Made by a program: the position numbers and the translations under genes
DNA from: Promethearchaeati archaeon
Lineage (GTDB): Archaea; Asgardarchaeota; Atabeyarchaeia; Atabeyarchaeales; Atabeyarchaeaceae
Assembly (NCBI GenBank): GCA_019058495.1
Contig: JAHPYV010000002.1
Span: forward strand, 3,143-67,142
Length of the DNA: 64,000 nt
Reading direction: 5' to 3'
The notes under the pieces: generated by a model
Seen by the model: the letters and a program-made list of their open reading frames with translations, nothing else
The model's database searches: none
What the model was told of the DNA's origin: nothing
Part shown: piece after piece, positions 2,485 to 57,259 of the stretch
Numbering within the stretch: position 1 is the stretch's first letter
How the letters are laid out: every line of letters starts with the position of its first letter

Positions 2485-2887
2485 TGAACATGACTTGGCC
2501 TTAATTGATATCAAATCGAACCTAAGTTCTAGGTTGATAAAAGTTAAGTGTGGTGTCTGAGCGAATTCATGAGTCGAATCTCGCGGTTCAGTCGGGCTCT
2601 CTGTCTCCTCTAGGCGTGAAGTTGAACCTGTTCCATAACGAGAGACTATTGGTTTTCCCGAATTGTCCCTGAAACTTGTCGAGCGAGGTAACAATGCAAG
2701 GATATTTGTATCAGTTGCGTCGTATGGCTTGGGCGCCATATTGGATCCAAGATCTGGTAGGTTCTGAAGTTTGTCATCTTGGATTCCGATACAATGCAAC
2801 TTGAGTCGATGCAGAACAGGTTTCAGGTGCCGTTGTTGGTACCACAATTTGAGCCGCCAACAATTCTGATAAAATCAAGTCGCTAAC

Positions 2888-3772
2888 ATGTCAGATTGCA
2901 TGAACGATCTCCGATTACTTTTCGAGGTGTTATTTGTGATTGTGTCTGTTGCCAGTGGAAAAGGAGGAACGGGGAAGACATCGATAGCTGTGAACTTAGC
3001 GATCTCCATAGGAAGCGCTCAACTTCTGGATTGCGACGTAGAAGAGCCGAACGCCCATCTCTTTTTCCATCACGAGACAAATCAAGTGGAGCCGGTTTCA
3101 ATTCTGGTTCCTCGTGTAAATGAACAACTATGCAACCATTGTGGGGAATGCGCAAAAGTCTGCCAGTACAATGCCATCTTTGTCGCGTCAGAGCGAGTTA
3201 TGATTTTTCCTGAGGTCTGCCACAGCTGCGGAGGATGTCTTCTAGTTTGCCCCAAGAAAGCGATCACAGAAGAAAGACATAGGATTGGGGTGATTAAAGT
3301 GATTCGCGAAGGAGACTTGGAACTCGTGTTCGGTGAACTCGAGGTAGGCGAGCCTTTGTCTGTTCCTCTCATAAAGGAAGTCAAAAAGAAGCTCGATGTC
3401 GGCAAGAACGTGATTCTTGACTCTCCGCCTGGAACTTCTTGCCCAATGATTGAGACTGTGAAGGGATGCGATTTCTGCATTCTCGTCACAGAGCCCACAC
3501 CGTTTGGTTTACACGACCTGAATATCGCTGTTCAGGTTCTCGAAGATATGAAGATCCCTGTTGGAGCGATTGTCAACCGCGCAGACATTGGAGACAAGAA
3601 GATTTATGACTTCTGTAGCGAGAAGGGCATACCTATCTTACTTGAGATTCCTTTTCAAAGAAGGATTGCAGAACTCTACTCCAGAGGAATTCCCTTCAGC
3701 CTAGAGATTCCTGAGTGGGGAGAGAGACTAAGGGTGTTATTTGATCAGGTAAGGAGGATTTCTAGTAAATGA
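2888..3772 (+). CDS. MinD/ParA-type P-loop ATPase with 2x[4Fe-4S] ferredoxin insert
   Basis: Walker A ASGKGGTGKTS followed by CNHCGECAKVC and CHSCGGCLLVCP. The real start is probably GTG 2936, preceded by GAGGTG. Confidence 0.85.
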   Translation: MSDCMNDLRLLFEVLFVIVSVASGKGGTGKTSIAVNLAISIGSAQLLDCDVEEPNAHLFFHHETNQVEPVSILVPRVNEQLCNHCGECAKVCQYNAIFVASERVMIFPEVCHSCGGCLLVCPKKAITEERHRIGVIKVIREGDLELVFGELEVGEPLSVPLIKEVKKKLDVGKNVILDSPPGTSCPMIETVKGCDFCILVTEPTPFGLHDLNIAVQVLEDMKIPVGAIVNRADIGDKKIYDFCSEKGIPILLEIPFQRRIAELYSRGIPFSLEIPEWGERLRVLFDQVRRISSK

Positions 3773-6943: not shown

Positions 6944-7436
6944 TATCAGCGCGTCCTTCTTACTCTGAGGTTTATGCTTTTTCTGTCGACTGGGTTTTTC
7001 TGGGCAATCGTTATCTGTTCTTAGCTTCGTTTGTTCTCAGACATTATCACCCTTTTAATCCATTCTTCCCCGATTTCTTGCTTTCAAGGTTGAATTTCGT
7101 TATCATGGTATTATATTTCGGATTTCGAAGAGATTAAGACTCCTAGCGCAGTGGAAGATGCTGCATCGATAGCACGGGAGCGACCAGCGATCACTTTCTC
7201 CCCATAGGCAAGTGCGCCGCTTTAGACGCGTGCGAGGAGCACTCACATGGATAGGGAACTGTTGCTAAGCCCCGAACACCTATCCGACACTTGCGTTCTC
7301 GTGCGAATATTCTCTCCCCGAGATTCTGCCTCACAACTCTGACGGTCTCTTATTTGAAGAGAATGCTGGAAAGAAAATCCATGCAACACAGCTGTGAATG
7401 TTTCCTGTCACACTAGAGAAGTCGATTCGTCGGCAG

Positions 7437-45085: not shown

Positions 45086-47047
45086 TCAGTCTGGACTCAC
45101 ATGCGGGTTAACAGTGGTTTTGGTTATGGCCATTCCGCTCCTACAGACCTCCTTACAAGCACCGCAAAGGGTGCATCTGGCATCTTCAATGTAAGCGAAC
45201 TCTTTACCATTTTCTGCCTTCCGCACGACTGCTGGGCAGGCGAAGCGTCTATAACATTCTTCGCAGTTTGTGCAACGATCGGAATCGATCGCGTAGTACG
45301 AGTATTTGCCTTTCTCGCGTTCAGCTTCTCTGATCGGTTCCATTCTTCTCTTTGCAGGTAACACGCATTCGCGTTCTGAGATAACTACCCGCACACCTTT
45401 CTCTTCCAATGCCTCAGTGATAACCTCCATAGCGTGGCGGATGTTATATGGATCAAATGATCTTACATATTTCACTCCACAAGCTTTCGCTATGTCTCTT
45501 AGGCTTACTGCTGGTGGAACTTCATCGCGTAGACTGCTAACGCCAGTAGCAGGTGTAGGTTGCCCTCCAGTCATGCCAACCCACTTGTTGTCCATGATAA
45601 CTACAAGAACATTAGCGCCATTGTATACTGCACTTATTAGCCCAGGTATCCCTGAATGCAAGAATGTGCTATCACCGATCAAACCAACCATTGTGTCCTT
45701 GACCTTGAAGCTCATCCCTGCTGCTATGTTGAAGCCAGCACCCATAGAGACGACCCAGTCCTGCATGGAGTAAGGGGGAAGTGCAAGCGTCGCGTAACAG
45801 CCGATATCTCCTCCGAATACGACTTGCCCTTTTCTCTCGGCTTCTATGAATTGCTGAGCTGCCTTCTTCAGTGCATATGCCGTAGCCCTATGTGGGCATC
45901 CTGGGCACATGCCTGGGTTTCTCTGCAGAGCCTTTGCTACGGCCTTGCTGTATTTTGCCTGTATGCCTGCATAATCTACTGGTTCCTTCATCCCAGTCGC
46001 TTTGCACATACCCCTTATGACAATGTCTGTATTCAATTCGCTAACCGCGGGGAAAACGTTTTTCCCATGCATTTCTCTGAGAATCTTCTTCTCGAATAGT
46101 ATCCTTTTTACTTCTGCCTCGATGAAGCCTTCAAGCTCCTCAACAACCAATATCTTCTCGAGGCCTTGAGCAAATCTCTCTATTAACTCGGGATTGATTG
46201 GATAGACCATGCCAAGCTTGAGAACAGGAAAATCGTCAATGCTGAGAGTGTCCGACGCTTCCATTGTATAGTTGAATGCGGCGCCACTTGTTATGATACC
46301 TGTCTTCGCCTTGCCGGGTATTATTCTATTGAGCTCAGACATCTCGCCTGAAGCCTTCTCAACTTTCTGAATTCGGCTCATCAATCTCGCTTTGTTTCCT
46401 ACGGCAACAAGGGTAGCAGAGACGAGTTTTCCAGGCGCTTTCTTGAACAGTCCTTCTGCCTTGGGAGGAGTGAGTTTGCCTAGGGTTACCTCACCTATTC
46501 CATGCAGAGTTCTAGGACCAGCATTTAGGATGACTGGAAGGTCAAACTTCTCAGAAAGTTCGAATGCTTTTAGCGTGAAGTCCTTGCTTTCCTGTGAATT
46601 TGAGGGTTCAAGACAGATCGTGTGGGCGTGTAGCGCATAGTACCTGTTGTCTTGTTCGTTGGTTGAACTTATGCAGCTTGGATCCCCTCCATTGACTAGG
46701 ACAAAAGCTCCAGGTTGAACTCCAATATAGCACAACGTGAAGAACGGATCGGCTGCGATATTCATGCCTACATGCTTCATCGCGCAGAGTGATCTCACTC
46801 CCGACCAAGCACCACCAATGGCATTCTCGAGCGCTACCGCCTCATTCACAGAATATTGAAAATGCAATCCCGGAATGCCTTTGGCGATCTCAGATATGGT
46901 GTCTCCAACTTCTGAGGCTGGGGTGCCGGGATAGGTTGTTACCATACCTACGCCCGCTTCTAATGCGCCACGAGCTATAGCCTCAGCGCCAAGCATGAAC
47001 ACTTTTTCACCAGGTTTATCCATAAGTATTTCTTTAGTAATTGGCAA
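45086..47047 (-). CDS. iorA: indolepyruvate:ferredoxin oxidoreductase alpha subunit
   Basis: 653 aa. TPP motif GDSTFLHSG...N and C-terminal 2x[4Fe-4S] CTNCEECYRRFACP / CTLCGACKEVC. Confidence 0.88.
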   Translation of the reverse strand: MPITKEILMDKPGEKVFMLGAEAIARGALEAGVGMVTTYPGTPASEVGDTISEIAKGIPGLHFQYSVNEAVALENAIGGAWSGVRSLCAMKHVGMNIAADPFFTLCYIGVQPGAFVLVNGGDPSCISSTNEQDNRYYALHAHTICLEPSNSQESKDFTLKAFELSEKFDLPVILNAGPRTLHGIGEVTLGKLTPPKAEGLFKKAPGKLVSATLVAVGNKARLMSRIQKVEKASGEMSELNRIIPGKAKTGIITSGAAFNYTMEASDTLSIDDFPVLKLGMVYPINPELIERFAQGLEKILVVEELEGFIEAEVKRILFEKKILREMHGKNVFPAVSELNTDIVIRGMCKATGMKEPVDYAGIQAKYSKAVAKALQRNPGMCPGCPHRATAYALKKAAQQFIEAERKGQVVFGGDIGCYATLALPPYSMQDWVVSMGAGFNIAAGMSFKVKDTMVGLIGDSTFLHSGIPGLISAVYNGANVLVVIMDNKWVGMTGGQPTPATGVSSLRDEVPPAVSLRDIAKACGVKYVRSFDPYNIRHAMEVITEALEEKGVRVVISERECVLPAKRRMEPIREAEREKGKYSYYAIDSDRCTNCEECYRRFACPAVVRKAENGKEFAYIEDARCTLCGACKEVCRSGMAITKTTVNPHVSPD

Positions 47048-48779: not shown

Positions 48780-49823
48780 GTGAAGACAGTGCAAAGTTCA
48801 GCGAAGGGCTTCAGGGAAGGCGATTTCATCGAGACACACGACAGCTTGATCTTTGATGTTAAAGGACTCTTCCATCCGCCTGACCGAGTCATAGCCTTCT
48901 TGAGATATTACCCTTCTGAAGCAGGTGAAAGAATCAGAAATGGGGTGGCGTACGAAAAGGTATACTCTCTGAATGATCGTTTCAGCTTTCTCAAGAAGAG
49001 ATACCCGTCATACATTTACTTTGACAAGATCTTCGACTCCATCATGCAAGGTGTTCCCAAGAAAGATGTAGCTCATGTCTATCAACCGAGCGAAAAGCTG
49101 GCTGAAGTCACGAATAGCCTTAAGAACTTGGATGATCTTGAGAAGGATTCAATAGAATTCTGTGAGATTCTCTCGAGATCTGCCGAGATACCTCTAAACA
49201 AACTGGGCTTGACAGGGTCGATTCTTGTTGGTCTCCACAGACCTGAGTCAGACATAGACGTAATTGTCTATGGCTACGAGAACTGCGTTGCAGTTTACGA
49301 CGCGCTTGGCGCTCTCTACAGCGATCCTCAATTTGGAGTTAAACCCTACGGTGACAACGAACTTAAGAAACTATTCAAGTTCAGATCATCTGACACATTC
49401 ACTGAATGGGGATCCTTCTTGGCAACTGAAAAGAGGAAGAGACTTCAGGGACTCTTCAAGAACCACGATTACTTCCTACGTTTCATCAAAGATTGGCACG
49501 AGTCGGATAAGAGGTATGGCGACGTAACTTACAAATCCCTAGGTCCAGTAGTAATCAGGGCCACGGTTGCCGACGATAGTGAAGCACTCTTCACACCATG
49601 CACGTACAAGATCAAGGGTACCCAACTGGTTAGGGGACATGAAGCGGGAGAGGCCATGATAAGGGAAGTTGCTTCATTTAGGGGACGGTTCTGTGAAATA
49701 GCGAGAAAAGAAGAACACATAAGTGCAAAAGGAAAACTTGAGCTTGTCAGCGATAAATTTGGCAATACGTATCGCCGCGTCATTGTTGGTGGAGAAAAGG
49801 ACGACTTCTTGACACTGGCTTAA
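48780..49823 (+). CDS. uncharacterised Pol-beta-type nucleotidyltransferase with C-terminal OB-fold-like domain
   Basis: NTase motif GLTGSILVGLHRPESDIDVIVYG in the middle of a 347-aa protein. The C-terminal beta-rich region resembles an OB fold. Confidence 0.6.
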   Translation: MKTVQSSAKGFREGDFIETHDSLIFDVKGLFHPPDRVIAFLRYYPSEAGERIRNGVAYEKVYSLNDRFSFLKKRYPSYIYFDKIFDSIMQGVPKKDVAHVYQPSEKLAEVTNSLKNLDDLEKDSIEFCEILSRSAEIPLNKLGLTGSILVGLHRPESDIDVIVYGYENCVAVYDALGALYSDPQFGVKPYGDNELKKLFKFRSSDTFTEWGSFLATEKRKRLQGLFKNHDYFLRFIKDWHESDKRYGDVTYKSLGPVVIRATVADDSEALFTPCTYKIKGTQLVRGHEAGEAMIREVASFRGRFCEIARKEEHISAKGKLELVSDKFGNTYRRVIVGGEKDDFLTLA

Positions 49824-49870: not shown

Positions 49871-50929
49871 TTGAGAAAACCCAAAGATCGTGACTTCATT
49901 AGAACCAACGAAGATCTAATATTCTGTGTTGTAGGATACCTCCATCCGCCTGACAGACTGCTAGCTTATCTCAAATATATTCCAAGTGACAGCGGGATAT
50001 GGGCTGCAGGAAACTTGCACTTCAAGAGAATGATACGGTACTACTCGTCTAAATCCGTCAGTGACACATTTTTCTTTTTAAAGAACAGATACCCAAAGTA
50101 CCTATTTTACTTCTACATAGACAATATCACTTTTCCTTGCGTTCCTTACTCCGACATCAAAGAGTATTATAAACCGGAGGAGAAATTAGCAGAATTAGCT
50201 AAGGAAGGAGAGAAACTTGATGCACTTCAATTAAGGGCAGTGGAGTTGGCGGAGTATTTGTCCGATAAAGCTGGAGTCCCTTTTGAGAGATTTGGAGTCA
50301 CTGGTTCAATCTTACTGGGAATACATAATCTATTAATTTCCGACGTGGACCTCACGATCTATGGGCACAAGAACGCATTGCTTGTGAAGCAGGCTCTGAT
50401 TGAAGAATACAAGAAAACTGAAATCCCATTAAGGCTAAGGCAACTAAATAGAAATGAAGTAGAGGAGTGGTGCACCAAAAAGACAAAACAATTCTCAATC
50501 GATTATGAATCTGCGGCGCTGATCTTGAAGAAGAAGTGGAACTTCGGATTCTACAAGGAAAAGTTCTTTTCCATTCATCCGATCAAACTTGACTCTGAGA
50601 TAATTGAAAAGTACGGTGAGAAAAAATTTGCAAGTGAAGGCACGGTGGAGATTACTGCAAATGTTGTTGATAACACGGAGGCGCTATTCAACCCTGCCTC
50701 CTATAAAGTGAGTGAAGTTCGAATCTTAAAAGGTTTGAAGGTTAACGACATAAAGGAAGTCGTTTCTTTCGAAGGCGTGTTTTCCGATCTTGCTTCACCG
50801 AATCAACTTATTAGCGCTAAAGGAAACTTGGAGGTTGTCGTGGACGTAAGAAGTAAGGAAACGTATCACAGAGTAGTGGTCGGTTCAAAGAATGTTGGCT
50901 CTCCTGAGCTTATGATTCCTGTCTCTTAG
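49871..50929 (+). CDS. uncharacterised nucleotidyltransferase-OB protein (paralog of upstream gene)
   Basis: Collinear with 48780..49823 (DLIFCVVGYLHPPDR, GVTGSILLGIHNLLISDVDLTIYG, ISAKGNLEVV). Confidence 0.6.
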   Translation: MRKPKDRDFIRTNEDLIFCVVGYLHPPDRLLAYLKYIPSDSGIWAAGNLHFKRMIRYYSSKSVSDTFFFLKNRYPKYLFYFYIDNITFPCVPYSDIKEYYKPEEKLAELAKEGEKLDALQLRAVELAEYLSDKAGVPFERFGVTGSILLGIHNLLISDVDLTIYGHKNALLVKQALIEEYKKTEIPLRLRQLNRNEVEEWCTKKTKQFSIDYESAALILKKKWNFGFYKEKFFSIHPIKLDSEIIEKYGEKKFASEGTVEITANVVDNTEALFNPASYKVSEVRILKGLKVNDIKEVVSFEGVFSDLASPNQLISAKGNLEVVVDVRSKETYHRVVVGSKNVGSPELMIPVS

Positions 50930-50957
50930 GCAGAAGATGTGATGCAAAATCGGTTGG

Positions 50958-51293
50958 TTATAGGAGTTGCGCGGTTGTCTCTTGGGGCTTGTATCTCAGC
51001 AGATGCGAAGTTATTTTCTCTTTTGGGTTCCTACGGTCATCACCTTCGGGAGTTCCTCCTATGACTCTGTCGAATTCTCTGTCTTCTTTTCTGGGTAGTT
51101 CGTGGCAGCGGTCTCGACGTATCTCATCTGTGTGTGAATGACACGCATGTATTATTCTTTTGGCTCTTGCAAGTGAAATCGCTTGCTTTGCTTCTTTTAA
51201 CGCTATGCCTTCCTCAATTAATAATTGTTCCATCTCGTCTACATTGCGGAATTTGATTTTCGTTTTGGCAAATACTTGTTCTATTGCTGACAT
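50958..51293 (-). CDS. hypothetical protein
   Basis: 111-aa ORF with a helical N-half and a CHSH...CH cluster. No family recognised. Confidence 0.35.
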   Translation of the reverse strand: MSAIEQVFAKTKIKFRNVDEMEQLLIEEGIALKEAKQAISLARAKRIIHACHSHTDEIRRDRCHELPRKEDREFDRVIGGTPEGDDRRNPKEKITSHLLRYKPQETTAQLL

Positions 51294-52274
51294 ACGTTGG
51301 TTTTCGCTAATGGTTATCGTCCTCCTTCATTCTTAGCGTCATCCTAAGTGCTCCCTGTTTCCTATCCTGCGGAAACCCTGTTTCTTTGCCGAACATTCTA
51401 CTATCCTCTCTCGAAGCCGTCTGCGGCACCCATTCGACGCTATGGCGTCGAAGCTGGATCGCGTTGCTTCGAGTGATTGGCAAGTGGGATGAGTTGGCTG
51501 CGAGAGCATTCTTCGCTTTCTGATCGTTTTCCGTCGGAGCGCGATCGAGGAGTGTCTGGATCCGAAGCCCGCTCCATCTTCATGGACGAGTAGGGTCGAC
51601 TAAGCACACTTTTGATCCATAAATAGGATCGACTTCTGATGCCGCTGTTGAGCGATGAGAAACAACCCGCCCGATCAGCGAAGTGCGAGATTCTTGAGAG
51701 TGACAGGATAAACCTCAGACCGATTCGCCTTTCCATCACAGCAGAGTTTCTTTCTGATTTGTTTGGGAGAGCTGAACTATCAGAGGCGATGCAGAAAGAA
51801 AATGAGAGGACAGACTGATGAACTAGAAACCCAATGTGCACGAGTCATGACTTGCGTAGTAGTTCCCCAATCAACAATTGCATAACTAGGTGTTGCAGTG
51901 TTAGTTTGCGGCGAAATCCCAGAGAATTGGAAAATCGATTGTAGCGCTCATACTTAAACGCAAGTTGCCGACGACAATCGATTGATCTTTTGGGAGCAGA
52001 CGTCGCGCACACTTTCAGAACCACTTAGTATAGGCGGACACATTACCCCTCTTCTATTTTTGCTTTGTTCATTGGAACCATTGCGCTACGGGTCGAAAGA
52101 CCGTTAGAGAAAACCAAAGACTCCATCGAAGAGAATAAGATATACTATGTATCTCACTCTTCCTTCCTCCTCCCCTATTACAATCGATCCCAATTTTCAA
52201 TACAGCTACAAAAGTCACGTTACATAGGTAAAGCACGCGTCAAAGTAACATCTGAGTCCACCTATAACAGTCCG

Positions 52275-52380
52275 ACAAAGAGGTTCTCAGGAAGACCATT
52301 GCGAGATCCATCCTAGCCGACCGTCCCCCTCTGGGGCTTTGAGTCGGTTAGTCATTGCGATCCAATCTGAACCTCTTTGT
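52275..52380 (-). promoter_or_regulatory. SECIS-like element (eukaryote-type AUGA_AA_GA architecture) overlapping the 3' end of the VhuU-like ORF
   Basis: Minus strand. Helix I: ACAAAGAGGUU (52380-52370) pairs with AACCUCUUUGU (52285-52275). AUGA at 52355-52352. Helix II: CUAACCGAC pairs with GUCGGCUAG. Apical UCAAAG, mini-hairpin CCCC-AGA-GGGG, and 3' GA at 52312-52311. Confidence 0.6.
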
Positions 52381-52501
52381 TAACTAACTCCTTACCGTTC
52401 TCGTCTACCACAAGGAGATGTGCCGCGCAAGAAAGTCAGCAATCGTAACACCTTATAACCATCTCCAGTAGGTTAAGAACTTTCTCATCAACGTCTGCCA
52501 T
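52352..52501 (-). CDS. vhuU: VhuU-like selenocysteine-containing peptide supplying the C-terminal Ni-ligand motif of the [NiFe] hydrogenase large subunit
   Basis: My own translation: MADVDEKVLNLLEMVIRCYDC-U(TGA 52438-52436)-LSCAAHLLVVDENGKELVNKEVQIGSQ*. Matches the large-subunit C-terminus ...R.YDPC..C..H plus protease-cleaved tail. GAGGT lies ~13 nt upstream of the ATG. Confidence 0.75.
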
Positions 52502-52527
52502 TTGGTTTTTTACCTCTTTTTATAAAA

Positions 52528-53901
52528 CTACTTCAAGCTGATCATGGGTTTTGGTAATTTCAATTTTTCATGTGCTTTGTCTTCAATTATCTGTTTAGCA
52601 ATAACCTTCAGTGACTTCTCGATTGCACCGATATTATGATTTGTAGCGACTATCAGATTTGCTTTGGTTATTATCCCTTCCTTGTCAGTCCAGTAGTTGT
52701 GGATCAAGTTTCCTCTCGGCGCCTCAACCACGCCGACGCCGTTTCCTTCACGTGGCTCTACTGTTTCGAGCTTATAGTCCTTGCTCACAATATCTGGATC
52801 CTCAAGCAACTTCTTCGCTTTTCCTGCCGCGTCCAATATCTCTATCACTCTCGCCCAATGATATGCAAATGTCGCGTGGCATGGTCTTCCCACTTTGGCT
52901 CTCAATTGCTTTAGCGCTTCGTTTCCTCTTGGTGTAGCCATCTTGTCAACCACATTTATCCTTGCGAGTGGTCCTGCTCTCCATATTCCATCTGGGTAAC
53001 CAGCTGGCTTATAGAAGAGGTGGGTAGCATAGCAATGCGGTACAACCTTCTCTCCCGCAACGTCCACGTATTCTGCAGCGGGAACTTCCGCTTCGATCTT
53101 ACCTGAAGGGGACATCACTCTAATGTTACCATCATATAAGTTGTGTTCTCCATTCTTGGCTAAACCAATGTAGTATGTTTCGACAACGCCGATTTTTGTT
53201 ATGACATCCCAGTAGTCCTCAACTATCTTCGTTACAAGTCCTAAGCTGAACTCGGCAAGCTCTATGGATCTATCCATTCTCTTAATCCACTCATCTCTCT
53301 GGGTCTCGGTGAGTCCTTTAGTCATCCCGCCAGGTATCGCCGTAACAGGATGAACAGATTTCCCTCCAACTACAGCGCACAATTCCTGCGCATGCTTCAT
53401 GAGTTCAATGGCTTTCTTCGCTGTGTCAGGCATTTTGTTGATCACGGTGACAATGTTTCTTGTTTCTGGCGGAGCGAATGGTCCAAGAAGAAAATCTGGA
53501 GATGCAAGAACATACAAGTGAAGCGCATGACTACTGATCTGCTTTGCCAGTAAGAGCAGTTCTCTGAGCTTCTTTGCTGAATCAGGCGGGTTGACTTTCC
53601 AAGCGTCTTCGACAGCTTTTACGGAAGCTATATGGTGTGGCTCAGGGCAGATCCCGCATATACGTGGCGCTATGATTCGAGCATCTTCAGCAAGTCTTCC
53701 TTCAAGGAACTTTTCGAAGAATCTCACAGAATTAACGTTGAACTGAACGTCTGAGACCATGCCCTTGTTGAGCTTTATCGTGACAGAACCGTGTCCCTCA
53801 AGGCGTGTAATGGGCTCGATCTTTATCTCAGTTTCCTTCTGTTCCTTTGGTTCCCTGACTTCCTTAGCCACGCTTGCCTTACCTTTCACTCTTTGACCCA
53901 C
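52528..53901 (-). CDS. mvhA: F420-non-reducing [NiFe] hydrogenase large subunit, lacking the C-terminal DPCxxCxxH motif
   Basis: RLEGHGS and N-terminal Ni ligands RICGICPEPHH. Ends ...IVATNHNIGAIEKSL...KPMISLK* without the C-terminal Cys pair. Confidence 0.88.
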   Translation of the reverse strand: MGQRVKGKASVAKEVREPKEQKETEIKIEPITRLEGHGSVTIKLNKGMVSDVQFNVNSVRFFEKFLEGRLAEDARIIAPRICGICPEPHHIASVKAVEDAWKVNPPDSAKKLRELLLLAKQISSHALHLYVLASPDFLLGPFAPPETRNIVTVINKMPDTAKKAIELMKHAQELCAVVGGKSVHPVTAIPGGMTKGLTETQRDEWIKRMDRSIELAEFSLGLVTKIVEDYWDVITKIGVVETYYIGLAKNGEHNLYDGNIRVMSPSGKIEAEVPAAEYVDVAGEKVVPHCYATHLFYKPAGYPDGIWRAGPLARINVVDKMATPRGNEALKQLRAKVGRPCHATFAYHWARVIEILDAAGKAKKLLEDPDIVSKDYKLETVEPREGNGVGVVEAPRGNLIHNYWTDKEGIITKANLIVATNHNIGAIEKSLKVIAKQIIEDKAHEKLKLPKPMISLK

Positions 53902-54810: not shown

Positions 54811-55287
54811 CTAACCGAGCAGGTCCTTTTCATCAACAGTCTGCTTCGGTCTGTTATTCTTCATCGGATTTGGTCCAAGTTTCTTGAGTACCCTTACGTA
54901 GTCTTTCACAACTTCTGCAAGCTTGCTGCCCTCACTTGCTGATATCCATTCAAGGCGAAGGCGTTCTGGTTCTAAACCCGTTTGTTGGATGAGCTTCTTC
55001 AGAAGATACACGCGCCTCTCAGTTTTGTAGTTACCGTTTACGTAGTGACAGTCACCAGGGTGACATCCCGAGACAAGAACTCCGTCTGCGCCGAGCTCCA
55101 ACCCTTTGATCATGTACTCTGGGTCAAGCCGACTTGTGCACATGACCCTGACGAGTCTTAGATTAGGCGGGTATTGTATTCTGCTTGTTCCAGCCATATC
55201 AGCACCGGCGTAGGTGCACCAGTTACACACAAGACCGAGAATATAAGGCTCGAACTCTTTGCTTTTACCGCTGTTTTGCTCAACCAA
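54811..55287 (-). CDS. mvhD: methyl-viologen-reducing hydrogenase delta subunit
   Basis: LVCNWCTYAGAD...VMCTSR...VSGCHPGDCHY, typical of MvhD. All Cys, no in-frame UGA. Confidence 0.88.
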   Translation of the reverse strand: MVEQNSGKSKEFEPYILGLVCNWCTYAGADMAGTSRIQYPPNLRLVRVMCTSRLDPEYMIKGLELGADGVLVSGCHPGDCHYVNGNYKTERRVYLLKKLIQQTGLEPERLRLEWISASEGSKLAEVVKDYVRVLKKLGPNPMKNNRPKQTVDEKDLLG

Positions 55288-55300
55288 ATAATACCCTCTC

Positions 55301-57259
55301 CTATTGACTAGGTTTCTCTTCTAACAGAGCCTCTATTTGAGCAAGGATCTGTGAGTCTTTGAAGTGGTTCTGAGTTATTGATCCACTTGGGCAGGTTGCG
55401 ACACAGCATCCGCATCCCTTGCACAAAACGTTGTTTATCTTCGCTTTTCCATCTTCTATCGATATTGCACCAAATGGACACATCGCAATGCACGATAGAC
55501 ATCCGCTACACTTGTCTGAATTGACGATACTGTAGAACGGCTCAACTTCAACTTTGCCTTTGGACATGAGCGAAGCTGCACCTGAGGCAGCTCCTTTTGC
55601 CTGAGCAACCGCGTCAGGTATGTCCTTCGGTCCCTGCACGGCTCCAGCTATGAAAATCCCATCAGTAAGGGTGTCAACTGGTCTGAGCTTAGGATGAGCC
55701 TCTAGATAGAAGCCATCAGCGCTACGCGAAATTTTGAGTAAATGTTGAACTTCCTCTATATCCTGTCTCGGTACCAGTCCTACGCTGAGCACAACGAGGT
55801 CAGCTTCAACTTCGATTGGTCTTCCAAGCTCAGTGCTTTCAGACCTCACGATCAAGTTCTTTGTCATGGGATCCTCTAGAACTTCAGCTGCTCTACCCCG
55901 AATATAGTTTATACCATACTCCCTTTGCGCGCGCTCGTAGAATTCTTCGTAACCCTTTCCAAATGCACGAACATCCATGTAGAGTACGTAGATATTGGTA
56001 TCCGGGTGGTGCTCTTTGAGTTGCCTAGCATGTTTTGTTGCGTACATGCAGCAAACCCTTGAGCAGTAAGTGTTCTTTCTGAAGTTCCTTGACCCGACGC
56101 ATTGAATGAAGGCTACCGTCTTAGGCACTTTGAGGTCTGAGGGTCTAACAACCTCGCCGCCGGTAGCTCCGAATGCACTAAGCATTCTTTCTACCTGCAT
56201 GCCTGTCACGACATTCTCGTATGTGCCGTATCCATATTCTCCGGTGGGGTCGTATGGGTCGTAGCCTGTTGTGGCTATGATCGTTCCAACCTCGACTTCT
56301 TCTTCGGTAGGTTGCTGATTGAAGTCGATAGCCTCAGGTTCACAGGCCTTGACACAGAGCTTGCATTTCACGCATTTGTCCATGTCAATGGTGTACTTGT
56401 TTGGAACCGCTTGCGGAAAAGGCATGTATATTGCTCTTCTGGGTTTCAGTCCCAACTCGAATTCGTTAGGAACGTAGATGGGGCACACTTCCTCGCATTT
56501 GCCGCATCCATTGCACTTTGATTCAATAACATATCTTGGCTTCTTTACTATCTTAGCCTTGAAGTTTCCAACATAGCCTTCTATACTTTTGACCTCTGAA
56601 TAGGCGTGGAGCTTTATGTTTGGATGTCTTCCGACATCCGTCATCTTGGGCGTAAGTATACATGCTGAGCAGTCCATAGTTGGGAAAGTTTTGTCAAGTT
56701 GGATCATACGCCCGCCGATGGTGGTATTCTTCTCAACTAGATGAACCTCGAAGCCAGCCTCAGCCAAATCAAGAGCCGCTGAGATTCCGGATATTCCTCC
56801 GCCAATTATTAGACAGCTCTTCTTAACAGGAACTTCGATGATTTCAAGAGGCTCTATTTTTGACGCCTTGGCCACGGCAGATCGTACGAGGTCTTTCGCT
56901 ATTTCATAGGCTTTCTCAGGTTCATGCATGTGGCACCATGTGTCATGCTCTCTGATGTTAGCCTGTTCAAATAAGTATGGATTGATACCTGCTCCTCTGA
57001 TGGCATTTCTAAAAGTGGGCTCATGCATAAGAGGACTACAGGCAGATACAACTACACGGTTCAACTTGTGTTCTTTGATGTCAGTCTTTATCATTTCTTG
57101 ACCAGGGTCGCTACACATGAACCTGTAATCCTTAGCTAGCACAACGTTGGGCAGTGTTGATGCATAATCAGCAAGTCCCTTGACGTTTACAACGCCAGCG
57201 ATATTCGTTCCGCAATGGCAAACGTAAACTCCAATTCGAAGCTCGGACTCGTCTGACAT
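55301..57259 (-). CDS. hdrA: heterodisulfide reductase subunit A (FAD, multiple 4Fe-4S)
   Basis: 652 aa. IIGGGISGISAALDLA FAD motif. Ferredoxin motifs CNGCGKCEEVCP, CVKCKLCVKACE, CSGCLSCIAMCP and CKGCGCCVATCP. Confidence 0.9.
   Translation of the reverse strand: MSDESELRIGVYVCHCGTNIAGVVNVKGLADYASTLPNVVLAKDYRFMCSDPGQEMIKTDIKEHKLNRVVVSACSPLMHEPTFRNAIRGAGINPYLFEQANIREHDTWCHMHEPEKAYEIAKDLVRSAVAKASKIEPLEIIEVPVKKSCLIIGGGISGISAALDLAEAGFEVHLVEKNTTIGGRMIQLDKTFPTMDCSACILTPKMTDVGRHPNIKLHAYSEVKSIEGYVGNFKAKIVKKPRYVIESKCNGCGKCEEVCPIYVPNEFELGLKPRRAIYMPFPQAVPNKYTIDMDKCVKCKLCVKACEPEAIDFNQQPTEEEVEVGTIIATTGYDPYDPTGEYGYGTYENVVTGMQVERMLSAFGATGGEVVRPSDLKVPKTVAFIQCVGSRNFRKNTYCSRVCCMYATKHARQLKEHHPDTNIYVLYMDVRAFGKGYEEFYERAQREYGINYIRGRAAEVLEDPMTKNLIVRSESTELGRPIEVEADLVVLSVGLVPRQDIEEVQHLLKISRSADGFYLEAHPKLRPVDTLTDGIFIAGAVQGPKDIPDAVAQAKGAASGAASLMSKGKVEVEPFYSIVNSDKCSGCLSCIAMCPFGAISIEDGKAKINNVLCKGCGCCVATCPSGSITQNHFKDSQILAQIEALLEEKPSQ

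Follow-up and report, generated by a model that had tools for sequence, protein, structure and literature searches.

A probable eukaryote-like SECIS element at the stop codon of vhuU in an Atabeyarchaeia-like Asgard archaeon

Eukaryote-like selenocysteine insertion sequence (SECIS) elements have been described in Asgard archaea in three reports. The lokiSECIS (Mariotti et al. 2016; PMC4989117) consists of AUGA, a 9-bp stem that its authors called shorter than the eukaryotic one, an 11-nt A-rich loop, and GA (AA in VhuU), and in the Loki VhuU.1 gene the AUGA doubles as the UGA stop codon. Models for type I and type II eSECIS-like elements were later applied to over 400 Asgard genomes (Huang, Xiao & Zhang 2024; PMC11227280). 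For Atabeyarchaeia, the selenocysteine (Sec) machinery, tRNASec, a VhuU selenoprotein of about 50 aa, and “multiple eukaryotic-like SECIS” have been reported (Valentin-Alvarado et al. 2024; PMC11291895). Here we examine a structured RNA element encoded on the minus strand of a 64-kb stretch of archaeal DNA (contig JAHPYV010000002.1; hereafter, the window), where it overlaps the stop codon of vhuU, a small hydrogenase gene with an in-frame UGA. This element is very probably the SECIS of vhuU in an Atabeyarchaeia-like Asgard archaeon, and represents the eukaryote-like “Asgard eSECIS” in its ministem-bearing (type II) form. As such, it is a further instance of a SECIS class that has already been published.

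The vhuU open reading frame (ORF), 52501..52352, reads MADVDEKVLNLLEMVIRCYDC-UGA-LSCAAHLLVVDENGKELVNKEVQIGSQ-UGA on translation. It is preceded by a Shine-Dalgarno-like AGAGGU and starts 27 nt past the stop codon of a C-terminally truncated [NiFe] hydrogenase large subunit. Its motif is DC-U-LSCAAH, in which the Sec UGA replaces, by alignment, the first Cys of the C-terminal CxxC (CxxCxxH) Ni-binding motif. When VhuA and VhuU were fused, with U read as C, residues 25-493 aligned to residues 3-456 of the unsplit MvhA (5odc_F), and therefore VhuU corresponds to the detached C-terminal Ni-binding piece of the large subunit. The features by which a VhuU selenoprotein is recognized, an ORF of about 50 aa after a truncated large subunit and a UGA at the first Cys of the motif, were both found.

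A one-genome-per-species scan with VhuA returned 80 loci, the best of them in Atabeyarchaeia-2 (81%). A small ORF with DC-UGA-[LI][SA]C-x-AH follows vhuA in 70 of these 80 genome loci, as well as in further metagenome loci. About 80 Asgard loci share, immediately after vhuA, the in-frame UGA motif DC-U-LSCxAH together with a conserved peptide that follows the UGA, and no Cys version of vhuU was found among the Asgard loci compared. An earlier sequence-only reading of the window had proposed that the UGA of this VhuU-like ORF is read as Sec, and both the conserved peptide and the end-to-end alignment of the fusion with MvhA uphold that proposal. We conclude that vhuU is a real gene and that its UGA should be annotated as Sec.

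The Asgard origin that had been proposed for the window is likewise borne out. The minus-strand gene order hdrA-vhuD(FlpD)-vhuG-vhuA-vhuU is collinear with that of both Atabeyarchaeia genomes of Valentin-Alvarado et al. (2024), with which the window shares its lineage and the vhuU gene. The organism is nevertheless a different one, with nucleotide identity of about 77%, VhuA identity of 81-88%, and an insertion of 1.35 kb after the element. The closest relatives of VhuA are all Asgard proteins, with 88% identity to Atabeyarchaeia-1 and 82-86% to proteins from JGI metagenomes, followed by Njord-, Jord-, Frey- and Thorarchaeota at about 60-70%. Nearly all of the 80 loci are labeled either as Asgard or as unclassified “uncultured archaeon,” and two carry other labels (Thermoproteota, Nanopelagicaceae).

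The architecture of the element (Table 1) was established by reading the minus strand of 52100-52900 and checking each item of a hand fold that the sequence-only reading had offered. All sequences and coordinates of that fold were verified, including the placement of AUGA (52355-52352) on the ORF stop. Helix II with its nine positions (eight standard pairs and one A.C mismatch), the unpaired UCAAAG, the ministem CCCC-AGA-GGGG, and the GA at 52312-52311 were all confirmed on the sequence. Helix I had been given as 11 bp, ACAAAGAGGUU (52380-52370) with AACCUCUUUGU (52285-52275); these pairs are right, but inverted-repeat analysis extends the helix to 12 perfect bp (52380-52369 with 52286-52275). 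The AAA motif had been placed 11-13 nt after AUGA and actually lies 12-14 nt after its last A. The 25-nt 3' strand of what had been regarded as an internal loop holds a hairpin (52309-52293) that had been missed. This third hairpin, whose loop in the window is the 7-nt UCGCAAU, forms a three-way junction with helix I and the SECIS arm.

Table 1. Coordinates of vhuA, vhuU, and the parts of the candidate SECIS element in the 64-kb window
Feature	Coordinates	Strand	Remarks
VhuA, [NiFeSe] hydrogenase large subunit, C-terminally truncated	52528..53901	minus	
vhuU, 49 codons, small hydrogenase subunit	52352..52501	minus	ORF read and translated
In-frame UGA, codon 22 of vhuU, read as Sec	52436..52438	minus	alignment, conserved motif
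Helix I 5' arm ACAAAGAGGUUC	52369..52380	minus	within vhuU codons 41-45 (N K E V Q)
5' linker AGAUUGGAUCGCA, helix I to core	52356..52368	minus	
AUGA, 5' half of SECIS core; UGA is the vhuU stop	52352..52355	minus	
Helix II 5' arm CUAACCGAC	52343..52351	minus	
Unpaired UCAAAG with conserved AAA	52337..52342	minus	
Apical ministem CCCC-AGA-GGGG (type II feature)	52326..52336	minus	
Helix II 3' arm GUCGGCUAG	52313..52321	minus	
GA, 3' half of SECIS core	52311..52312	minus	directly 3' of helix II
Third hairpin GGAUC-ucgcaau-GGUCU	52293..52309	minus	
Helix I 3' arm GAACCUCUUUGU	52275..52286	minus	3' untranslated region

Judging from the sequence, the 3' GA presumably pairs with the G and A of AUGA as tandem sheared G.A pairs. 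The register of the ministem is ambiguous, given five G's. In this lineage the 5' linker is probably unpaired or only weakly paired; a small hairpin, weakly predicted there, would take up the AU of AUGA. A direct repeat, UGGAUCGCAAUG / UGGAUCUCGCAAUG at 52353-52364 and 52297-52310 (minus strand), flanks the SECIS arm; the AUG of AUGA forms the end of one copy, and most of the third hairpin consists of the other. It is absent from close relatives and is therefore probably either coincidental or the product of a recent local duplication.

The claim that a eukaryote-like SECIS overlaps the vhuU stop codon gains strong support from comparison, as the same module, with every helix covarying, follows Sec-type vhuU in 76 non-redundant Asgard loci that were anchored on this stop codon. 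In these loci the stop UGA lies inside [A/U/C/G]UGA; next come a 9-bp helix, then an A-rich loop, and finally GA or AA. The core reads AUGA in 69/76 loci, UUGA in 4/76 and CUGA in 2/76 (Jordarchaeia), and GUGA in 1/76, and it coincides with the vhuU stop codon always. The 3' dinucleotide is GA in 59 of the 76 and AA in the other 17, and the distance from Sec UGA to stop UGA is nearly constant (84 nt in 71/76, 96 nt in 5/76). Loops of 10-14 nt (type I) occur in 65/76 loci, whereas loops of 18-23 nt with a ministem (type II) occur in 11/76, all from Atabeyarchaeia- and Jordarchaeia-like clades and including the window. The sequence of the 9-bp helix differs clade by clade, and in every clade the first nucleotides of the loop are xxAAA or AAAAA. 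A ministem with compensatory changes is found only in the Atabeyarchaeia and Jordarchaeia clades.

Sec-type vhuU with a SECIS was observed in Jordarchaeia (L002-L004 and L039), among which UUGA/CUGA cores and the ministem occur, and in Borr/Sifarchaeia (L012 and L017). In a 2021 paper on Sif- and Jordarchaeia, HdrA, Prx, and MvhD are the only selenoproteins named for these lineages.

Covariation was examined initially in an alignment to which no structure had been fitted, made with MAFFT from the window and its six closest relatives. From these seven sequences RNAalifold returned helix I, helix II, the ministem, and the third hairpin. Paired cells amounted to 88.5%, compared with 35-58% when the partners were slid, and 15 pairs showed compensatory change compared with 1-7; the observed values were reached in 0/500 shuffles. 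Compensatory changes are present in each of the four helices, and in helix I they include AAA/UUU to AAG/CUU, GG/CC to GA/UC, and A-U to G-C (AAC to AGC).

A covariance model built from the close-relative alignment matched the window once and, in 52 other loci, recovered the site that follows vhuU. Its extra matches were a shifted match in L073 and a degenerate second copy in L026. The latter locus (Hermodarchaeota metagenome-assembled genome, JBHLLF010000019) carries at 7050-7171 a second, degenerate vhuU 3' end and SECIS, about 2.6 kb downstream from the real one, in which the core AUGA has become AACA and no Sec codon is present. In an alignment of 55 sequences fitted to this model, 85.7% of cells were paired compared with 35-54% when slid, and 27/30 pairs showed compensatory change. 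Helix II is 92% paired with 9/9 pairs covarying, helix I is 80% paired with 11/12 covarying, and the third hairpin is 85% paired with 4/5 covarying. Because the 55-sequence alignment is model-fitted, MAFFT alignments of the Thor and Loki-like clades were in addition folded de novo. RNAalifold recovered the closing helix, the SECIS arm, and the third hairpin in both, and in the Thor clade the closing helix is lengthened by a second, inner helix.

A leave-one-out covariance model, built from 11 relatives without the window and with RNAalifold's own structure, matched 52267-52395 with 87.5 bits (E = 1.2e-15), which was its sole significant match in 64 kb. The invariant nucleotides across the family are GGAUGA (each position in 47-54 of 55 sequences), the A-rich start of the loop, and GA followed by C. 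The structure is thus conserved, and more than chance would allow, and the covariation in orthologous loci that had been suggested as a check was found in all helices, both among the seven close relatives and in the 55 sequences. One further test, in which minimum free energy (MFE) pairs enclosing the SECIS were counted with native and shuffled 5' flanks, did not discriminate (72/81 vs 71/81) and was discarded.

These data bear directly on the possibility that the UGA at 52438-52436 is a true stop codon or a pseudogene lesion, with the fold a chance product of hand-folding. Gene callers did miss vhuU in all four relatives whose gene calls were inspected. Also, in one metagenomic relative (L092; JGI Ga0315296_10000968, 2885-3038), vhuU has CGC-UGG (Arg-Trp) where all others have UGC-UGA (Cys-Sec). 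However, in-frame conservation extends through the 27 codons past the UGA in about 80 loci, the VhuA-VhuU fusion matches full-length MvhA, all helices covary, and the leave-one-out model matches with E near 1e-15. A true stop or lesion is accordingly extremely improbable, and this explanation is effectively refuted already by the conservation data. The change in L092, where the SECIS, third hairpin, and closing helix are all intact, may mean that Sec was lost recently, or may be a variant introduced by sequencing or assembly.

Among the closest described elements is the lokiSECIS of VhuU.1. Both reside in vhuU, place AUGA directly before a 9-bp stem, start the loop with A-rich sequence, and have a purine followed by A after the stem, such that the lokiSECIS pattern of AUGA, 9-bp stem, and GA/AA is present in the window. 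The elements differ in that the window has a 21-nt loop with a 4-bp ministem instead of a fixed 11-nt loop, and GA instead of the AA of Loki VhuU. The published loop description (11 nt, the first five mostly A, the last a G preceded by A) does not apply to the window, whose loop starts with UCAAAG and ends in ACG, while Loki-like relatives do have AAAAA loops of 11-13 nt. The main text of Mariotti et al. (2016) describes neither a lower helix reaching into the coding sequence nor a third hairpin.

The type II descriptor of Huang et al. (2024) fits the window element in all respects, and their “frhA” family includes this type of gene. The core 5'-GA_[G/A]A-3' corresponds to GA 52353-52352 and GA 52312-52311 flanking helix II, and the upper stem (7-15 bp, two mismatches at most) to the nine positions with one A.C. 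The ministem (2-8 bp) has 4 bp, the apical loop (2-6 nt) 3-4 nt, and the bulge (4-12 nt) 6 nt on the 5' side (UCAAAG) and 3-4 nt on the 3' side. The element also lies within the allowed range of 30 nt upstream to 600 nt downstream of the gene 3' end, as its core sits on the vhuU stop. Type I is the major form for frhA in that study, making the window element an example of the minor form, and the typical lower stem [U/C]GG_C[C/U][A/G] is replaced by CA...U in the window. That paper mentions neither Atabeyarchaeia nor a three-way junction.

Comparison with the eukaryotic type 2 SECIS reveals both the extent and the limits of the likeness. The AUGA...GA core, the unpaired A's atop helix II, the apical ministem, and the lower helix I are common to both, and helices I and II covary. 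However, helix II has 9 bp and is shorter than the usual eukaryotic one, and the core sits on the stop codon instead of being positioned at a distance within the 3' untranslated region. Also, unlike the eukaryotic form, the window element has a third hairpin between the core and helix I: The 5' strand of the supposed internal loop is 13 nt long, whereas its 3' strand holds this conserved hairpin. In this 3' strand the element departs from the plain “canonical type-2 SECIS” layout that had been assigned to it, and the eukaryotic models of Rfam miss the element.

The SECIS of Euryarchaeota (Methanococcales/Methanopyrus) performs the same job from the same location at the gene 3' end, and serves in part the same genes (vhuU, vhuD, hdrA). 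Its GAA_A bulge and 3-bp G/C upper stem are absent from the window element, and a pattern scan for the GAA_A form in 51800-52560 (minus strand), downstream from vhuU, was empty, in agreement with the earlier view that the element is not of the methanogen type. Likewise, no significant hairpin of the bacterial type, in which the apical loop lies 16-37 nt from the UGA, was evident after the Sec UGA, as the segment 52440-52381 has z = -1.35 and 18/200 shuffles fold as well.

In the window, a loose NUGA/9-bp/A-rich/[GA]A descriptor matched 11 sites compared with 4.6 in shuffles, and among these only the vhuU site has AUGA and sits on a stop codon. Neither another AUGA descriptor site nor a second significant covariance-model match was found in the window. 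A scan for other selenoprotein genes by in-frame TGA gave only artefacts of adjacent genes, such as that at 45088 between two oxidoreductase genes.

Cys-type vhuD genes served as a negative control: The loose SECIS pattern follows 2/52 of these, compared with 65/84 cases in which it falls exactly on the vhuU stop. In the window, VhuD (FlpD) at 54811-55287 and HdrA at 55301-57259 (both minus strand) are Cys-type without an in-frame UGA, and only 14 nt separate vhuD from vhuG. The vhuD gene adjoining vhuA is Cys-type in all 52 cases among the fetched Asgard loci, none with a SECIS, and no other Sec genes were found in the flanks of these loci.

Several observations weigh against the identification of the element as a SECIS. 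The literature holds no experimental test of any Asgard SECIS and no report of a binding factor, and no Sec machinery was found in the 64-kb window, nor any tRNA gene by ARAGORN. In addition, the core context CA-AUGA...GA-U, which the window has in common with its nearest relative (L162), is atypical, since G-N-AUGA...GA-C (GG-AUGA...GA-C) occurs in 74/76 loci. No Rfam family reached the gathering threshold anywhere in the window, and no SECIS family matched at E <= 10 in 51900-52700; this element is therefore outside the reach of the eukaryotic SECIS models of Rfam. The only match of the permissive search, to sucC with E = 7.4, was judged to be due to chance. Finally, in the single-sequence MFE structure a UAGGA/UCCUG pairing conceals the 3' GA together with the three lowest base pairs of helix II, and the conserved four-helix structure is predicted at -36.0 kcal/mol compared with -47.7 for the MFE structure (52265-52395). 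Most close relatives could form a corresponding GGA/UCC core (alignment pairs 86-111, 87-110, and 88-109).

The missing Rfam SECIS match, together with the absence of both helix I and the third hairpin from descriptions of SECIS elements, could suggest a structured 3'-end element involved in mRNA stability, termination, or processing whose likeness to a SECIS is coincidental. We regard this as very unlikely. The invariant parts of the element are the exact SECIS signature (GGAUGA, A-rich loop start, and GA), and in every clade the element accompanies a conserved in-frame UGA at the fixed distance of 84 nt. Moreover, the Cys-type vhuD genes of the same operons lack such an element, and the same module has been published downstream from unrelated Asgard selenoprotein genes.

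Thermodynamic folding of the SECIS region gave a mixed outcome. RNAfold predicts -44.7 kcal/mol for 52270-52390 (z = -3.15), and 0/200 shuffles fold as well. Helix I and the upper 5 bp of helix II pair with probabilities close to 1 (at least 0.85 throughout), and the third hairpin with probabilities of 0.85-0.99. In contrast, the lowest 3 bp of helix II have p of about 0.03 and are displaced by the UAGGA/UCCUG pairing, with p of 0.8-0.98. The folding that had been recommended as a check thus confirmed significant stability and the formation of helix I and upper helix II, but the MFE structure hides the 3' GA. An alternative lower helix, GGAUC/GAUCU, directly beneath the core was rejected, being possible in the window only and not conserved in relatives.

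Dominance of the UAGGA/UCCUG pairing in the single-sequence ensemble raises the prospect of a conformational switch between the SECIS-competent fold and an extended third hairpin (UAGGA/UCCUG, with GGA/UCC as its counterpart in relatives) that conceals the 3' GA. Sec insertion would thereby be regulated, with a protein or the translating ribosome as possible agents; such a switch would refine the SECIS interpretation rather than replace it. Among the seven close relatives the five pairs of this alternative can form in 84.6% of comparable cells (26/35, the two outer pairs being mostly gaps), but they do not covary, as 238/500 shuffles reach the observed value. The pairing is also absent from the Thor, Loki-like, and Jordarchaeia clades, whose third hairpin starts directly after GAC, whereas the lower helix II pairs that it would displace do covary. 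Furthermore, energy models leave both G.A pairs and protein binding out of account. A switch therefore seems improbable to us.

Kink-turns comprise a canonical helix, a 3-nt bulge, tandem trans sugar-Hoogsteen G.A pairs, and a noncanonical helix, as exemplified by Kt-7. The Asgard vhuU consensus G-[G/A/U]AU-GA ... GA-C agrees with a kink-turn in which G-C is the closing pair, 3 nt bulge out, and G.A pairs stand in tandem, and the G(-2)/C(+1) combination compatible with a kink-turn occurs in 74/76 loci. Many members also share with Kt-7 an A.G at the next position. The window fits less well in that its closing pair is not G-C (C..U, or A-U if shifted by one). Its canonical helix below the core would be at most 2 bp long (CA/UG) before the junction begins.

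These features are compatible with the following mode of action. The genes hdrA-vhuD-vhuG-vhuA-vhuU, to judge from their order, would be transcribed as an operon from the minus strand. Codon 22 of vhuU, a UGA, stands by alignment at the position of a Ni-ligand cysteine, and the mRNA 84 nt downstream would fold into a three-way junction of helices shown by covariation, composed of the 12-bp closing helix, the SECIS arm, and the short third hairpin. Within it, AUGA and GA may form a kink-turn-like core with tandem G.A pairs. In [NiFe] hydrogenases, a maturation protease removes a C-terminal extension. The codons in helix I probably encode this cleaved extension, and hence would be free to serve RNA structure. 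A ribosome paused at the Sec UGA would cover about 15 nt downstream and stop about 40 nt short of helix I, so that the folded element could recruit the Sec-specific elongation factor with Sec-tRNASec, either directly or via a kink-turn-binding protein. After Sec insertion, the reading of 27 further codons would melt first helix I and next the core itself. By then no intact SECIS would remain behind the second UGA, the one within AUGA, and this UGA would be read as a stop, following the minimal-distance argument of Mariotti et al. (2016).

Homology with Atabeyarchaeia-1/-2 and the JGI relatives is lost exactly where the 3' arm of helix I finishes (about 52275) and is regained at the end of ORF 49871..50929, which defines a lineage-specific insertion of about 1.35 kb (50930-52274) directly after the SECIS. 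The insertion has no blastn or tblastx match to the fetched loci or the rest of the window and no Rfam match, and its ORFs at 50958..51293 and 51440..51841 (minus strand) have no Pfam domain. An imperfect 15-nt inverted repeat (50950-50964 / 52261-52275, 80% complementary) lies at its ends, and the insertion may be a small mobile element. Farther on, tandem paralogous ORFs at 48780-49823 and 49871-50929 (plus strand), about 35% identical, are convergent to vhuU, and one has a weak match to the nucleotidyltransferase family NTP_transf_2. The pair occupies the same place in Atabeyarchaeia genomes, where no Pfam family is recorded for it.

The main texts of the three Asgard SECIS papers (PMC4989117, PMC11227280, and PMC11291895) describe no three-way junction, no tetraloop hairpin, and no closing helix formed with the coding sequence. 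Of the points raised by the present locus, only the conserved third hairpin and closing helix may be new. The third hairpin starts 1-3 nt past the 3' GA, has the consensus CyyGCAAGGG, and is better conserved in sequence than helix II. Its loop GC is conserved in 52/55 sequences, and a closed GCAA/GCGA (GNRA) tetraloop is present in 25/76 loci. A tentative proposal, about which we remain doubtful, is that the sampled Asgard vhuU SECIS elements are not simple kink-turn hairpins. They would instead be conserved three-way junctions made of a closing helix with coding sequence as its 5' strand, the SECIS arm, and a short G/C-clamped third hairpin. The third arm could then be a docking site for an archaeal SECIS-binding factor, or it could fix the kink-turn as a “k-junction”-like tertiary clamp. 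SBP2 is not known from archaea, Asgard included, and if the proposal is true, the third arm would provide a concrete handle on how archaea read a SECIS without this protein.

As its class has already been published, a single instance adds little to the field, and the wider comparison is more useful. Raw sequence alone was enough to confirm a Sec-using Asgard source near Atabeyarchaeia, a real but uncalled 49-codon vhuU gene, and a UGA that should be annotated as Sec. The fixed 84-nt spacing, the stop codon inside the core, the closing helix drawn from codons of the cleaved extension, and the third hairpin together define a minimal construct of about 106 nt. Such a construct could be used to test how an archaeal, eukaryote-like SECIS works without SBP2.

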